Part shown: positions 22,104 through 59,598 of the stretch, piece by piece
Layout: every line of letters starts with the position of its first letter
How positions within the stretch are numbered: the first letter of the stretch is position 1
Position numbers and translations under genes: made by a program
Notes under the pieces: model-generated
Seen by the model: only the letters and a program-made list of their open reading frames with translations
What the model was told of the DNA's origin: nothing
Database searches by the model: none
Assembly: GCA_945878135.1 (NCBI GenBank)
Contig: CAMDUL010000002.1
Location: 79,349 to 143,348 of the forward strand
Origin: Chthoniobacter flavus
GTDB lineage: Bacteria > Verrucomicrobiota > Verrucomicrobiia > Chthoniobacterales > JACTMZ01
Direction: 5' to 3'
Length of the DNA: 64,000 bases

Positions 22104-23278
22104 CCGCGGGCACTCTCGGCGCTCCTCCCTCCATCCTCAATTCCATAAAGCGCCCGCACCAGCCGCGCGGGACGCGTCTCGCGCAGAACGCCGCTTTCCA
22201 TGCGGTTCATCACGTAGGCGAAACCGATGCGGTTTTCCGGGTCGGCGAAGGCGAGACTGCCGCCGGCGCCGGGATGACCGAAGGCCGCGGACGACGGACC
22301 GAAGGTCGGACGCACTTTGACGCCCGAGGGATCAAGGGGGTCCATCATGAAGCCGGCGGAAAAAGCGGTCGGCTGTTGCAGCACGAGATCCGGCCCGTTG
22401 CTCTTGCGGCGGGTCAAGGCCTCGCGCCACGGACCGCGGAAAAATTCCCCGGCGGCAAGACGTTCATAAAACCGCGCGAGCGATCGGGCGTTGCCGATGC
22501 CGCCGAAGGACGGGATGGACGCGCGCCAGACTTCCGGCCGGTTGATCGCCGCCGCGCCGGACAGGCCCTCGGGCCGGGCAAATGATCGGGCCGTCAAGGT
22601 GGCCCGGTCGGCCAGCGCCCGCTCGAAGGGGCCCGGTTCGACAAGATCTTCCGTGCGCGCCGCGTGCATACGGGCCATGCGGCTGTCCAATTCGGGAGGC
22701 AGCCCGATCCAAAAGGCCAGGCCCAGCGCCGCGCCGAAAACTTCGCGCCAGTATTCGCCGAGAGGCTTCCCGGTGGTGCGACGCACGAGGGCGTCGAGCA
22801 GATAACCGAAGGTCCGCGGTGCGTAGCCGTGCACCGTGCCCGGTTCCCAATCCGGAGCCTGCGCGGCCAGTGCGGAGGCCACGCCCTGGAGGTCGAAAAC
22901 ATCGAGCCCGGACCGCCCGAGGGCGGAAAGACCGGAGCGGTGGGCGAGCAGTTCGGCCAGAGTGATCCGGTCTTTGCCCGCCGCCCCGAATTCCGGCCAC
23001 ACCGAGGCGACCGGCGCCTCGAGCGGAACGCCCGCCTCCTGCAGCGCATGCAGCGCGCACGCCGCCCCCGGGCCCTTGGTCGCCGACCAGCAGAAAACGA
23101 GCGTGTCTTCGGTCCAAGGTTGCGTCGCCGCCGCATCGCGCCAACCGCCGCCGAAACGCAACACCTCGCGGCCGTCCTGCCAGACACAAACCTCGGCGCC
23201 GATTTCCCCGCCGCGGGCAAAGTTGTCCTCGAACGCCGTGCGCACGCGCGCCACGGCGGCTTCGTCGACGCGGATCAT
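22100..23278 (-). CDS. serine hydrolase, beta-lactamase (class C/transpeptidase-like) family
   Basis: The SxxK motif 'CWSATKG' is present in a 392-aa protein of the beta-lactamase family type. Confidence 0.8.
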   Translation of the reverse strand: MIRVDEAAVARVRTAFEDNFARGGEIGAEVCVWQDGREVLRFGGGWRDAAATQPWTEDTLVFCWSATKGPGAACALHALQEAGVPLEAPVASVWPEFGAAGKDRITLAELLAHRSGLSALGRSGLDVFDLQGVASALAAQAPDWEPGTVHGYAPRTFGYLLDALVRRTTGKPLGEYWREVFGAALGLAFWIGLPPELDSRMARMHAARTEDLVEPGPFERALADRATLTARSFARPEGLSGAAAINRPEVWRASIPSFGGIGNARSLARFYERLAAGEFFRGPWREALTRRKSNGPDLVLQQPTAFSAGFMMDPLDPSGVKVRPTFGPSSAAFGHPGAGGSLAFADPENRIGFAYVMNRMESGVLRETRPARLVRALYGIEDGGRSAESARG

Positions 23279-23763
23279 GCCAGCTTGCCGATGACGTCTT
23301 CCAGATCGGGATCGTAGCGGGCGATCTCGCGGAATTTCCCGTCCATGTTGAAACTCATCTGCAGGTAGCTCTGCGCCTCCTCCGGATTGCCGAGCACCGC
23401 GTGGTAGCAGCCGAGATTGTAAAAATAAATCGGCTCGCGCAGCAACGATGGCGGCCCCTGCTGCAGGAGTTCCATGGCCTCCGCGGTCCGGCCGAGTTCG
23501 TGCAAACAGAAGGCGCCGTGGATGTATCCGAGGCCGAGGTCCGGACGCTCGGCCCGGAGGACCCCGCAGGCCGCCAGGGCCTCCGGCCAGCGCCCCCCCC
23601 GCATCAGGATATAGACCCGCAACTGCGCCACATCTTCGTGGGCACGGTCCCCCGGCGGCACCCGCTCCAGTTCGGCGAGCGCCTCGTCGGTCATCCCAAG
23701 TTCGAGATAACCTTGGGCCGCGTTGATGTAGTGTTGCAGGGCGATGGCTTTAGCTAACGGCAA
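23275..23763 (-). CDS. TPR-repeat protein
   Basis: It carries repeated 34-residue A/L/G/Y patterns such as 'AFCLHELGRTAEAMELL' and 'YNLGCYHAVLGNPEEAQSYL'. Confidence 0.7.
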   Translation of the reverse strand: MPLAKAIALQHYINAAQGYLELGMTDEALAELERVPPGDRAHEDVAQLRVYILMRGGRWPEALAACGVLRAERPDLGLGYIHGAFCLHELGRTAEAMELLQQGPPSLLREPIYFYNLGCYHAVLGNPEEAQSYLQMSFNMDGKFREIARYDPDLEDVIGKLA

Positions 23764-23853
23764 AGGCCAAAGCCGCGCAACCCAAGTTGTCCGGCCCGGA
23801 TGTTTTCCCGGTGGACACCGGGGCGGCGGCGGTGCAATTTAACCGTTCCTGCT

Positions 23854-23935
23854 GCTCACGTGGCGGAACTGGCAGACGCGTGCGTCTCAGAAGCGCATGG
23901 GGTGACCCGTGGAGGTTCGAGTCCTCTCGTGAGCA
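23854..23935 (+). tRNA. tRNA-Leu (anticodon CAG), class II with long variable arm
   Basis: I folded the cloverleaf by hand. The acceptor stem is GCTCACG/CGTGAGC and the D-arm is GCG-GAACTGGCAGA-CGC. The anticodon stem is TGCGT/GCGCA with loop CT-CAG-AA. There is a 13-nt variable arm, a T-arm GGAGG-TTCGAGT-CCTCT and discriminator A. CCA is not encoded. Confidence 0.9.
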
Positions 23936-23943
23936 TTATCCCG

Positions 23944-33115: not shown

Positions 33116-33383
33116 ATCCTTGAAAGGAAATGCTTAATCCACACGAGCGAGTTTTGGCGAGGCCAAAGGGAGAGGCCGCCGTCCGCTCCGCGGTGCACGC
33201 CCTTTCCACCAGCCCATCCTCCGCCGCATCCGATGCGTCCCGCACACCTTGTCCCGCCCGCCCGCGGCAAGGTGCGGGGGACCGGACAGCATCCTCCCCG
33301 CCAGCGCCGCGCCGCGCCCGCCATGCCTCCCCGGGTCCATTGCCCCCCCAAAAAACCGCGCCCGATTGAACAAAAATTGGGCA

Positions 33384-33915
33384 ATGACCATGATTTTTGT
33401 TGTTCAGTGCGGGTTTTCAACAATATTCCGAGATTATGGTCTCCCCCCGCCAAACAAAATCCCGTCCGGAGTGCACCGCGCCTTCACCTTGATCGAGCTT
33501 CTGGTCGTCATTGCCGTCCTCGCCGCCTTGTCCGTCGGATCCTACCGCAGCATCATGGACCGCTGGCCCGCGGGCAAGGCCACCAACGGCGAGTTCAACT
33601 CGTGGTATGGCCCCCCCCACCAAACTGAACGACGGGAAAAAAGTCATGGTCAACCTCCGCCCCTACTACGGCGAAGGCGAGATCAAGGAGGACGGCACTT
33701 TCAAGGACCCCTGGGGCAACCAATATTCGATGAAATGGGATATCGATAACAGCGGCAAGCTGGAGTATTATGACAAAGGAAACCGCGAAAATATCCCGAG
33801 CACGTTCATTGTGGTGAGCCTGGGCAAGAACCGGACGCAAGACAATCCCCGCCTCAAGACGGCCGACGACGTCTTCAGTTTTTGCGCCTACCGCGACACC
33901 AATTTCTTCAGATAA
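33384..33915 (+). pseudogene. GspG-like pseudopilin / prepilin-type N-terminal methylation-domain protein, frameshifted at a poly-C tract
   Basis: The N-terminal 'RAFTLIELLVVIAVLAAL' is in frame 0 (ORF 33249..33749). The GspG-like C-terminal 'DPWGNQYSMKWDIDNSGKLEYYD' is in frame 1 (ORF 33511..33915). The frames switch at the C8 run at 33611-33618. Past the tract, frame 0 reads Arg-rich nonsense. Confidence 0.7.
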
Positions 33916-34426
33916 GCCGGTCGCTCCAAGCAGTCCGCCGAATGCGGGCTGATCATCCGGCGGTTGCCGCCCCCCGGCCGCGAACAACCCGCGCAGAAAA
34001 AACAAATCCCCCTGATCCTTGGGCCGCCCCGACATCCTCACGTTGCGGAGGCCGCGAAATCAGCTCCTCGGCCTCGTCAGGTAGTGCATCGTCCATGCAT
34101 CGGCCTCCTCGAAGGAGCGGAATCTGAAGACACCCTTGGGAAAACAAGGCATGGGAGCCTCCTCCCGGATGCGGGCCAGCGACCTCTGGAGGCCGAACCC
34201 CTATTCCAGCGAGTCCTTGATCCGCCGCCGCCCCACGGTCTTGCCGGTTTTTTCGTCAATGTTCGCCACCGGGTGCATCCCGAAAGAGTAGACCCCGGGT
34301 CCGGCACTGGCAACCACCGATCGGCGCCCTCTGTTACTCAGGGCCAGCCTTCAAGTCTCCGCCCTCTCTTCCAAAACTTCCCCCTTGCCCCGCGCCGCCA
34401 ACCGGCTAATATCCGCGGTTCCCGAT

Positions 34427-38744: not shown

Positions 38745-39149
38745 TCAAACTCCGGCGAAATCCGCAGGATCGATGGCAACCTTCGGGCAGGCTTTTCGCA
38801 GGGGCTTGTCGAAGGTGAGTAGCGGAACCTTGAGCGCCTCGGCCAGACAAACGAATTCCGCATCGTAGGCCGTCACATTTTTCCCGTGCGTCAGATCCAG
38901 AACATCATCGGACGGCAGCGCATACTCACGACCGCGCCACAGGGCCTCGGCCGCCTCCATCGTTTGCTTGGCCTGGGTCAGGGACATGCCCTCGTGGCGA
39001 ATGTAAAGCGTGAGAATATTCCTCATCTCAGACCGGCAAACGATGGGCACTGCCCACTCGGGATCCCTGCGGAAGACTCTTTCCGCCAGCAAACTTTTCT
39101 CTCCCGGAATCAGAAGGTAAGCGATGAGGTTCGAATCGACCACGATCAT
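38745..39149 (-). CDS. vapC: PIN-domain ribonuclease toxin VapC
   Basis: The N-terminal 'MIVVDSNLIAYLL' and the later acidic residues ('AYDAEFVCLAEAL') fit a PIN domain. The gene overlaps the upstream antitoxin gene by 4 nt. Confidence 0.85.
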   Translation of the reverse strand: MIVVDSNLIAYLLIPGEKSLLAERVFRRDPEWAVPIVCRSEMRNILTLYIRHEGMSLTQAKQTMEAAEALWRGREYALPSDDVLDLTHGKNVTAYDAEFVCLAEALKVPLLTFDKPLRKACPKVAIDPADFAGV

Positions 39150-39385
39150 GGCCGACCTTCGCTTTTGGCCGCAAAGATAAGGCGGTCCGTCAGTTTTCCC
39201 GGCAGCGAATCGCGGTGACGCCGGATGTCGGCAAGCATGGTCGCGACATCCACCTTGCTCGGCGCAACCGCGCTCTCAAGACAGGCCAACGCCTCTCTGT
39301 TCAGACTGCGTCCATGCTGCTTGGCGCGGGCTTTCAACGCCTTGTGCACAGTGGAAGGAATATCTTTGAGCGTGATGGTCACCAT
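39146..39385 (-). CDS. vapB: ribbon-helix-helix (Arc/FitA-like) antitoxin VapB
   Basis: The sequence 'MVTITLKDIPSTVHKALKARAKQHGRSLNREALACLE' fits the Arc/FitA RHH pattern. It lies upstream of and overlaps vapC. Confidence 0.8.
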   Translation of the reverse strand: MVTITLKDIPSTVHKALKARAKQHGRSLNREALACLESAVAPSKVDVATMLADIRRHRDSLPGKLTDRLIFAAKSEGRP

Positions 39386-57445: not shown

Positions 57446-58669
57446 TCAGCAGACCGTGAGAATCCTCCCCGCCAACGCCGCCGGATCGACCGCGACGCGG
57501 CTGTGGATCCGTAGAACAGGTTCCCCGCGGGAGACCTTGTCGCCTTCCTTGCGGAGGCACTCGACGCCGACGGCGAAGTCGACCGCGTCGCCCGCCCTAC
57601 CCCGGCCCGCACCGAGCTCGACGCAAAGGCGGCCGACCTGCAACGCATCGAGTTCGACGACGGTGCCGTCCGCCGAAGCGGGCACATCGGTGATCACCGG
57701 GGCGCGGTGGACTTCGCGCATCTTCTCCAGAGCGGAAGCATCGCCACCTTGCGCCAGGACCATGGCGATGAATTTCCGCCACGCACTCCCGTCGTGGAGC
57801 CGTTTGCGCAAGTCATCGCGCGAGGTGGCCACCAGTTTGACGGCCAGATCCAGGGTCAGCTCGACCAAGTCCTGCGGACCGCCGCCATGGAGCACCTCGA
57901 CACATTCGGCGACCTCAAGAGCGTTGCCCACCGTGCGGCCGAGCGGTTGGTCCATCGGTTTGAGCAGCGCGTGGGTCTCGACGCCCGCGCCGCGCCCGAC
58001 CGCGACCATGGCATCGGCCAGCTTGCGCGCATCTTCGCGCTTTTGCACGAAGGCGCCGCGTCCGAATTTCACGTCGAGCACGAGCCGGTCGGGCGATTCG
58101 GCCAGCTTTTTCGACATGATGCTGGCCACAATGAGGGGCAAAGATGCCACCGTGCCGGTCACGTCGCGCAAGGCGTAAAGTTTTTTGTCCGCCGGGCACA
58201 AGTTGTCCGTCTGCCCCGCGATGAAACAACCGACACGCTCCAGCTGCGCCAGCATCTCCGGCCACGCGAGATTGACGCGGAAACCGGGGATACTTTCCAG
58301 TTTGTCCAGCGTGCCGCCGGTGAAGCCGAGACCGCGGCCGGAAATCATCGGCACCCACACGCCCTCGCAGGCCAGGAGGGGGGCGAGAATGAGCGAGGTT
58401 TTGTCCCCCACCCCGCCGGTCGAATGTTTGTCGACCTTGGGCGGCGTGCCCGCCGGCCACGCGAACACATCGCCCGAATCGCGCATGGCCATGGTCAGCG
58501 CCACGGTCTCCGCATCGTCCATCCCGCGGAAAAAAACCGCCATGGCCAGCGCCGTAATCTGGTAATCCGGCACCTCGCCGCGCACATAAGCGCCGACCAG
58601 GGCACGGATCTCGTCCGGCGTCAGCGCGCCGCCATCGCGCTTCCTTTCAATGAGGGACGGAATGTGCAT
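57446..58669 (-). CDS. deoA: thymidine / pyrimidine-nucleoside phosphorylase
   Basis: The sequences 'IERKRDGGALTPDEI', 'DKHSTGGVGDKTSL' and 'MISGRGLGFTGGTLDKLESIPG' are present. Confidence 0.9.
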   Translation of the reverse strand: MHIPSLIERKRDGGALTPDEIRALVGAYVRGEVPDYQITALAMAVFFRGMDDAETVALTMAMRDSGDVFAWPAGTPPKVDKHSTGGVGDKTSLILAPLLACEGVWVPMISGRGLGFTGGTLDKLESIPGFRVNLAWPEMLAQLERVGCFIAGQTDNLCPADKKLYALRDVTGTVASLPLIVASIMSKKLAESPDRLVLDVKFGRGAFVQKREDARKLADAMVAVGRGAGVETHALLKPMDQPLGRTVGNALEVAECVEVLHGGGPQDLVELTLDLAVKLVATSRDDLRKRLHDGSAWRKFIAMVLAQGGDASALEKMREVHRAPVITDVPASADGTVVELDALQVGRLCVELGAGRGRAGDAVDFAVGVECLRKEGDKVSRGEPVLRIHSRVAVDPAALAGRILTVC

Positions 58670-58685
58670 CGCCCCAACAAACTGC

Positions 58686-59579
58686 TTACCACCCGATCGG
58701 ATGCCAAGCGGTCTTGAACTCGATTGTGTCGAGGATCCACTGGGGACGGTCGGCCGTGCGCCAATCGCCGGCCGGCACGGTGTGACGCGCGTAGCGCTTC
58801 ATATTGGTCGCGGTGCCTTCGTGGAGGGTTTTGTCCAGCGCGTCATCCTTGCAGCCGTTGACGATGGCGTTCACATCCATGTGCGTCGCCGCGGTCGGGG
58901 CGAGATCGGCGCGGGGTCCGGACAAAATGTTGACCACCCCGCCGGGCAGGTCGCTCGTGGCGAGGATCTCGCCGAAGGTCAGGGCCGGTAACGGATATTT
59001 TTCCGAGGCCACCACAATGCAGGTGTTGCCGGTCAGGATAGTCGCGGCGACCAAATGAACCAGGGCAACGAAAGACGGCGTATCCGGACAGAAAATGACG
59101 ACCACGCCGGTGCCTTCCGGGTAGGTGAAATTGAAATGCGGGGACGACACCGGATTGACCGAGCCGAAGACGGCGGTGAATTTGTCCGACCATCCCGCAT
59201 AGTGGACGAGCAACTCGACCGAGTCGGCCACTTCGCGGCGCGCGGCCGCGGCGGTGCATCCCGTGCTGCGCACGATCTCGCGTTCCATTTCCTCGGCCCG
59301 CATCTCGAGCATCTCGGCCGCGCGGTAAAGGATCTGGCCTTTCAGATACGCACCCGCGCCGCTCCATTTGCCGAAGGCTTTGCGCGCGGCGACCACCGCA
59401 TCGCGGAAATCCTTGCGCGATCCGCGGCAGACCTGGGCCAGCGTCGTCTTGCCGTCCGGGGACAGCGCGCGGACGACTTTGCCGCTTTCCGAACGGATAA
59501 AGGCCCCGCCGACATACATTTTGTAGGTCTTGAGCACTTGCAGACGGCCGTTTCTTGCCGCGGCGGGGGTTTTTGCCAT
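58686..59579 (-). CDS. aldehyde-dehydrogenase-like protein lacking the catalytic domain (297 aa)
   Basis: The N-terminal two-thirds aligns by eye to the ALDH NAD-binding region ('YKMYVGGAFIRSESG', 'LYRAAEMLE', 'PEGTGVVVIFCPDTPSF', 'GNTCIVVASEKYP', 'GVVNILSG'). There is no ELGGK or catalytic Cys motif. The protein ends 'EFKTAWHPIGW'. Confidence 0.7.
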   Translation of the reverse strand: MAKTPAAARNGRLQVLKTYKMYVGGAFIRSESGKVVRALSPDGKTTLAQVCRGSRKDFRDAVVAARKAFGKWSGAGAYLKGQILYRAAEMLEMRAEEMEREIVRSTGCTAAAARREVADSVELLVHYAGWSDKFTAVFGSVNPVSSPHFNFTYPEGTGVVVIFCPDTPSFVALVHLVAATILTGNTCIVVASEKYPLPALTFGEILATSDLPGGVVNILSGPRADLAPTAATHMDVNAIVNGCKDDALDKTLHEGTATNMKRYARHTVPAGDWRTADRPQWILDTIEFKTAWHPIGW

Positions 59580-59598
59580 AGCTTACCAAAGGTATCCA

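Follow-up and report, generated by a model that had tools for sequence, protein, structure and literature searches.

Positions 33436-33915 (+ strand) of the window, as the whole 64,000-nucleotide stretch of Chthoniobacter flavus DNA analysed here is called, probably hold a pseudogene of the ordinary kind, bearing several lesions and derived from a conserved orphan GspG-like pseudopilin of the Chthoniobacterales; the probability of this reading is put at roughly 0.78. Four indels separate the window copy from every relative in protein and DNA alignments, all of them falling within 180 nt and accompanied by very few substitutions, and the run of eight cytosines (C8) at 33611-33618, for which a preliminary description of this DNA had raised the possibility of slipped-strand phase variation, is only one of the four, so that an ordinary pseudogene, with no on/off switch, is the better account. 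The frame is disrupted relative to orthologues that are all intact, and among the options raised in that description the pseudogene is the one borne out by four independent indels against every relative.

Three of the four indels are deletions. The first (33456-33459, + strand) is the loss of one nucleotide from an adenine run, A4 in the window and A5 in every relative in the DNA alignments, which shifts the frame of the native start codon, ATG 33436-33438, to frame 0. This ATG aligns with that of the homologues (MVPPRQTK or MVSPRPTK); from it MVSPRQTK is read in frame 1, the frame is then lost at the A run, and translation ends after 18 codons at TGA 33490-33492 (ORF 33397-33492 is among the listed ORFs of the window), giving an 18-residue peptide as the native-start product. 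The second lesion, with its junction at 33505-33516 (+), is a 9-nt in-frame deletion in the hydrophobic N-terminal helix that takes out three residues (IIA/AII), turning VVIAIIAVLAAL into VVIAVLAAL; its exact placement is ambiguous because of ATTGCC/ATCGCC repeats, and the missing residues are kept in 21/21 relatives. An 84-nt in-frame deletion with its junction at 33558-33563, inside the segment 33555-33563 (+), marked by the direct repeats ATGGACCGC and ATGAACCGC, forms the third and removes the 28 residues ITISKVQNQHMRGLNAAMSLYKADNMNR, the alpha1-C half of the pilin helix; both of these larger deletions are bordered by direct repeats or microhomology. The fourth is a one-nucleotide insertion in GGC CCC CCC ACC, within the codons for the conserved WYGPPT, producing C8 at 33611-33618 (+) where the closest relatives have C7, after which frame 0 is cut short by a TAA at 33747-33749.

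The consequence is a gene distributed over two frames. The prepilin motif RAFTLIELLVVIAVLAAL lies in frame 0, its RA↓FTLIELL (the arrow marking cleavage) now cut off from the native start codon, and DPWGNQYSMKWDID lies in frame 1 in the part encoding the C-terminal globular domain (33619-33915, +), which carries the DPWGNQY motif, ends at TAA 33913-33915 and has 99% identity to two related loci, L001 and L009. The frame change across C8 had been described correctly, as had the repair: one C less gives a continuous ...NSWYGPPTKLNDGKKV... and restores WYGPPTKLNDGKKV, identical to intact homologues. The 9-nt and 84-nt helix deletions were absent from that earlier reading, and even with both frameshifts reverted the product would be without 31 of 52 helix residues, alpha1-C included. 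In pilins, alpha1-C packs against the beta sheet and forms the core of the protein, and the frame-corrected product would therefore be expected not to fold; the shortened protein probably could not do so. Frame 0 read from an upstream ATG would, if transcribed, yield a 121-aa protein with an out-of-frame tail.

Related loci come from Chthoniobacterales or Chthoniobacter metagenome-assembled genomes and from metagenome contigs, the order fabF(-)/pilin(+)/rpsO/pnp recurs in close relatives, and all 21 relatives that cover the gene hold one intact ORF of about 190 aa, these orthologues ranging in identity from 45% to 99%. In five close ones (L001, L003, L004, L007 and L023) the gene has a length of exactly 573 nt, and although they diverge by up to 16% no indel separates them. 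A further comparison is with L023, whose RpsO is identical to that of the window, whose fabF is about 96% identical and whose 190-aa pilin gene is intact: the indel differences between its pilin gene and that of the window are exactly the four lesions.

Substitutions are distributed unevenly along the gene, with 7 unique to the window copy in the 5' part and 1 in the 3' part (10 and 5 in L001; 8 and 4 in L004). Conversion by a paralogue was considered for the divergent 5' third and rejected, the 5' third being more variable in all relatives (6-16% divergence, against 3-10% in the 3' part) the window counts resembling those of L001 and L004, and no second prepilin motif being present elsewhere in the window. 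With a single unique change in the 3' part (the C-terminal 300 nt), either the decay would be recent or the 3' part would have been exchanged lately with a relative. Two further loci, L024 (1-3833) and L025 (1-2272), with PNPase at least 90% identical, carry BtpA, MnmA and a sulfatase upstream of rpsO, not fabF and the pilin gene, an arrangement that makes the pilin/rpsO junction a synteny breakpoint within the clade. In a distant group (L012-L021, about 46% identity) the genomic context differs from the fabF/rpsO one, and the upstream gene ends in a PEP-CTERM-like signal (...PEPS..LLLL.RRK*) about 130 nt before the pilin start.

Comparison with relatives also settles where the gene begins. 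That ATG 33436 is in frame 1 and ATG 33384 in frame 0 is confirmed in the sequence, yet ATG 33384 is untenable as the start: it lies in a non-coding block, and its equivalent in relatives is absent or out of frame with the pilin. The ATGs at 33384 and 33390 are fortuitous occurrences inside this block (33366-33435, +), which is conserved in L001, L003, L004, L007 and L023, with DNA further upstream diverging, and which probably comprises the promoter and 5' leader. It contains an imperfectly conserved inverted repeat, AACAAAAAT (33369-33377) and ATTTTTGTT (33393-33401) with an N15 spacer, and may serve the pseudopilin gene as promoter or operator; scanning the surroundings of the gene for promoters and terminators yielded no convincing candidate. 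The repeat AACAAAAAT-N15-ATTTTTGTT is less perfect in L007 and L023, and a TTGAAC box also lies within 33366-33435.

The upstream poly-C tract, C6 at 33443-33448 (+), is present as described, together with C8 at 33611-33618, but it is no lesion. Its codons, TCC CCC CGC, are in frame with ATG 33436, homologues of the form MV[SP]PRQTKIPS match straight through it, and the same position holds an identical C6 in L004, an in-frame C8 in L007 and L023, and CCCCCCT in L001. As a candidate for the upstream shift it was accordingly rejected in favour of the A run 10 nt downstream, and the leader MVSPPPNKIPS... that had been derived by adding one C to C6 is wrong because the frame loss sits at that A run and not at C6. 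The picture in which a slippery poly-C tract flanks the N-terminal domain on either side thus loses both supports, the first tract being in frame and the second, at 33611, being unconserved as a tract.

Phase variation, in which C8, with or without the upstream runs, would reversibly switch a pilin of the cell surface or a secretion system, draws on the fact that pilin-like proteins are a class often phase-variable and on tract length, since C8 stands at the low end of the range reported for candidate phase-variable tracts of Neisseria, (C)8/(C)9 and (G)7/(G)8 among them (PMC5320596). The relatives nonetheless speak against it. At the tract, the codons are GGC CCC CCC ACC in L001, GGA CCC CCC in L003, GGC CCC CCG in L002 and L007, GGA CCC CCG in L004 and L009, and GGG CCG CCG in L005, L006 and L008; the distant group mostly has GGT CCT CCT. 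The run is thus C7, C6, C5 or absent through synonymous changes and interruptions, in frame throughout. The comparison of tract lengths with relatives, suggested as a check, thus found substitutions and no length changes, with 21/21 relatives intact and none out of frame; nowhere among these 21 is the tract conserved as a tract that varies in length. Nor is the gene otherwise intact, three further lesions (A5 to A4, 9 nt and 84 nt) remaining after C8: reversion to C7 would leave the A4 frameshift and the 31 lost helix residues. The tract lies mid-gene and not near the 5' end, the lineage is a free-living freshwater or soil one, and the window gave no sign of a set of phase-variable loci. Long C/G runs are fewer there than chance would give, 2 runs of C8 or G8 against 6.0 +/- 2.9 expected from dinucleotide-preserving shuffles. 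Phase variation is therefore unsupported and held to be highly unlikely; the C8 run arises by accident where Gly-Pro-Pro-Thr is encoded in a genome of 65% G+C and is not a selected switch. The other C8/G8 run of the window (23593-23600) lies in an intact TPR-repeat ORF at 23275-23838 (-), which adjoins a tRNA-Leu(CAG) at 23853-23936, the only hit in Rfam and tRNA scans of the window.

A variant that accepts the helix deletions, namely a naturally shortened pseudopilin with a helix of about 21 residues and no alpha1-C, toggled by C7/C8, the one-nucleotide changes being reversible or erroneous, is regarded as extremely improbable; if it were true, a free-living verrucomicrobium would possess a pilin both phase-variable and structurally minimal.

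The two single-nucleotide changes also invite the thought of programmed recoding, in which a full-length protein would arise because ribosomes shift frame, or transcription slips, at the A and C runs. Homopolymers can support transcriptional slippage, and the -1 and +1 shifts cancel, the start codon and the C-terminal domain therefore sharing a frame. Recoding is, however, unneeded in the relatives, all of which are in one frame, and there is therefore no conserved shift site or stimulatory structure; moreover, efficient slippage needs a longer run than A4, each transcript would have to undergo two events, and the product would still be without alpha1-C. The likelihood of such recoding is put at extremely low.

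A more ordinary doubt concerns the assembly itself. If A4 and C8 were consensus errors, the real gene would be in one frame, as a 159-aa allele with the 9-nt and 84-nt deletions, or these too would be assembly collapses. Both frameshifts do fall in homopolymers, where long-read and older pyrosequencing data typically go wrong; the DNA probably derives from a metagenome-assembled genome, in which a contig assembled across a mixed population could join variants of different cells; and two related contigs, L002 and L009, break within the pilin gene, indicating a region that is hard to assemble. Against this stands the integrity of the surrounding genes: in about 30 further ORFs of the window, A7 runs and the G8 run at 23593 included, Pfam matches reach from end to end and no frameshift was found, and with so many genes intact a general homopolymer error is unlikely. 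Two of the 10 homopolymer runs of at least 4 in the pseudopilin gene are shifted, compared with 0/242 in checked ORFs totalling 21.9 kb (Fisher p = 0.0014), this comparison set consisting of the ORFs that Pfam matches cover over their full length, to which fabF, rpsO and pnp of the window were added without a Pfam scan. A generally frameshift-prone assembly was rejected on Pfam checks of about 40 window ORFs. Both errors would, besides, have to coincide with the one gene that also holds two non-homopolymer deletions, of which the 84-nt one shows the natural signature of direct-repeat deletion, and the neighbouring genes are damaged by a 374-nt deletion and a stop codon, neither of them a homopolymer error. 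Because the 9-nt and 84-nt lesions are not homopolymer errors they support a pseudogene, and the protein would not be regained by reverting only the C run. Taken together, the lesions are probably biological rather than assembly errors, and the artefact is considered unlikely. In a public protein collection the exact FabF and PNPase of the window are present and no product of the pilin fragments was found, consistent with a gene not called as a protein.

The damage extends beyond the pseudopilin gene. Between it and rpsO lie the remnants (33952-34314, -) of a module of two genes, still intact in L023 (2033-2841): a DUF6036/AbiEii-like nucleotidyltransferase of 173 aa, of which a 374-nt deletion has left residues 1-22 and 147-173, and a 107-aa partner gene that in the window has an in-frame stop and has lost its N-terminus. 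The nucleotidyltransferase module is degraded in L001 as well, and the locus as a whole is decaying. Elsewhere in the window, ORF 58686-59582 (-) has an aldehyde dehydrogenase Pfam match only at positions 2-210 of 461 and runs into an intact thymidine phosphorylase gene (57446-58798); it may be a truncated gene remnant and a second pseudogene of the window. Downstream of corA and SUI1, a VapC (PIN)/VapB-like toxin-antitoxin pair of lower GC3 occupies 38745-39385 (-) and is found also in L024 and L025.

The succession of events behind the decay may be outlined as follows. The ancestral gene was 573 nt long and encoded 190 aa, with a short leader, the motif [A/G]↓FTLIELL for prepilin cleavage and methylation (ancestral leader and cleavage site: MVSPRQTKIPSGVHRA↓FTLIE), an alpha1 helix of 52 residues and a small beta domain bearing DPWGNQY. 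Selection on the orphan pseudopilin would have been lost first and the indels would have followed, replication slippage in two homopolymers (A5 to A4, C7 to C8) probably accounting for the frameshifts and mispairing at two short direct repeats probably accounting for the 9-nt and 84-nt deletions.

As to what was lost, the label of a GspG-like pseudopilin holds for the family and not for the window copy, which stays below the GspG thresholds. The frame-repaired window protein matches Pfam N_methyl at 27.8 bits (cutoff 21.2) and TIGR02532 at 28.8 bits (cutoff 16.3), and it retains the N-terminal motif of type IV pilin-like, class III signal peptide proteins, [G/A]↓F-x-x-x-E, followed by a hydrophobic helix. 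It gave no match to Pfam T2SSG (PF08334), and TIGR01710 reaches 19.9 bits against a cutoff of 88.85 through the N-terminal motif only, the closest homologues likewise remaining below the thresholds. A search of a large protein collection found 35 homologues, most of the full-length ones 172-203 aa long; among 30 aligned family members, 27 match N_methyl and 13 match PF08334 at E <= 0.1 (best 4.3e-7). The AlphaFold model of the closest intact homologue, P0001, is confident, with a pLDDT of 86, and shows a helix at residues 19-70 and after it a small beta domain; its best matches among solved structures, at modest scores, are a type IVb pilin and EpsG, the GspG of Vibrio, and a sequence profile matches solved pilins and GspG over the helix only. 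The continuous alpha1 helix of about 50 residues lying on a beta sheet is thus seen in P0001 and is lacking in the window copy, from which 3 + 28 residues are gone. The N_methyl and T2SSG matches and the pilin fold place the family in the type IV pilin superfamily as a divergent, GspG-like member; judged by sequence, it is a divergent relative of GspG, not an equivalog.

For annotation, the locus is best entered as a single pseudogene whose native start is 33436, rather than as two ORFs or as a phase-variable gene, and its significance beyond annotation is small. The orphan GspG-like family is uncharacterised and often stands beside fabF/rpsO in Chthoniobacterales, and its dispensability in the lineage of the window is a small piece of information on the family. 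The case also counsels caution, in that Pro-Pro or Gly-Pro codons produce C runs on their own in a G+C-rich genome, and a frameshift at such a run speaks for a contingency locus only when the tract is conserved among relatives and differs in length between them.

Measured against known systems, the family resembles GspG (PulG/EpsG; PF08334, TIGR01710) in its leader with [A/G]↓FTLIELL, Glu5, long N-terminal helix and small beta domain, and GspG has a DPWG motif resembling DPWGNQY. It differs in being about 45 aa longer, in the inactivation of the copy in the window and in its setting, an orphan between fabF and rpsO and not part of a gsp operon. Membership of such an operon, with GspD/E/F, was rejected on the identity of the neighbours, housekeeping genes that include fabF, a gene of the purine nucleoside phosphorylase family, those for an ECF sigma factor and an HtrA-like protease, and further rpsO, pnp, corA and SUI1; no T2SS or T4P machinery genes were present among the roughly 40 ORFs scanned across the window, including all within about 8 kb of the gene.

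The nearest counterparts for a switch are Neisseria pilC and pgtA, in which translational phase variation proceeds via poly-G tracts (PMC5320596, PMC2193922); there, as in the window, a G/C homopolymer in a pilus-related coding sequence sets the reading frame. The pilC tract, (G)9-15, lies near the 5' end and varies between and within strains with the rest of the gene intact (PMC5320596). Unlike the run in the window, it is longer and is conserved as a tract, whereas the window gene has other inactivating lesions and its relatives show no length variation; of the two hallmarks of a Neisseria contingency locus, a conserved, length-varying tract and an otherwise intact gene (PMC5320596), the window locus shows neither.

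The closer likeness is to bacterial pseudogenes arising through homopolymer slippage and direct-repeat deletion. The window copy shares with them several small indels, mostly deletions, situated at homopolymers and short direct repeats, with relatives intact and dispensable neighbours decaying alongside, and a deletional bias of bacterial genomes is well established; the sole unusual point of the window copy is the concentration of four indels in 180 nt with very few substitutions.
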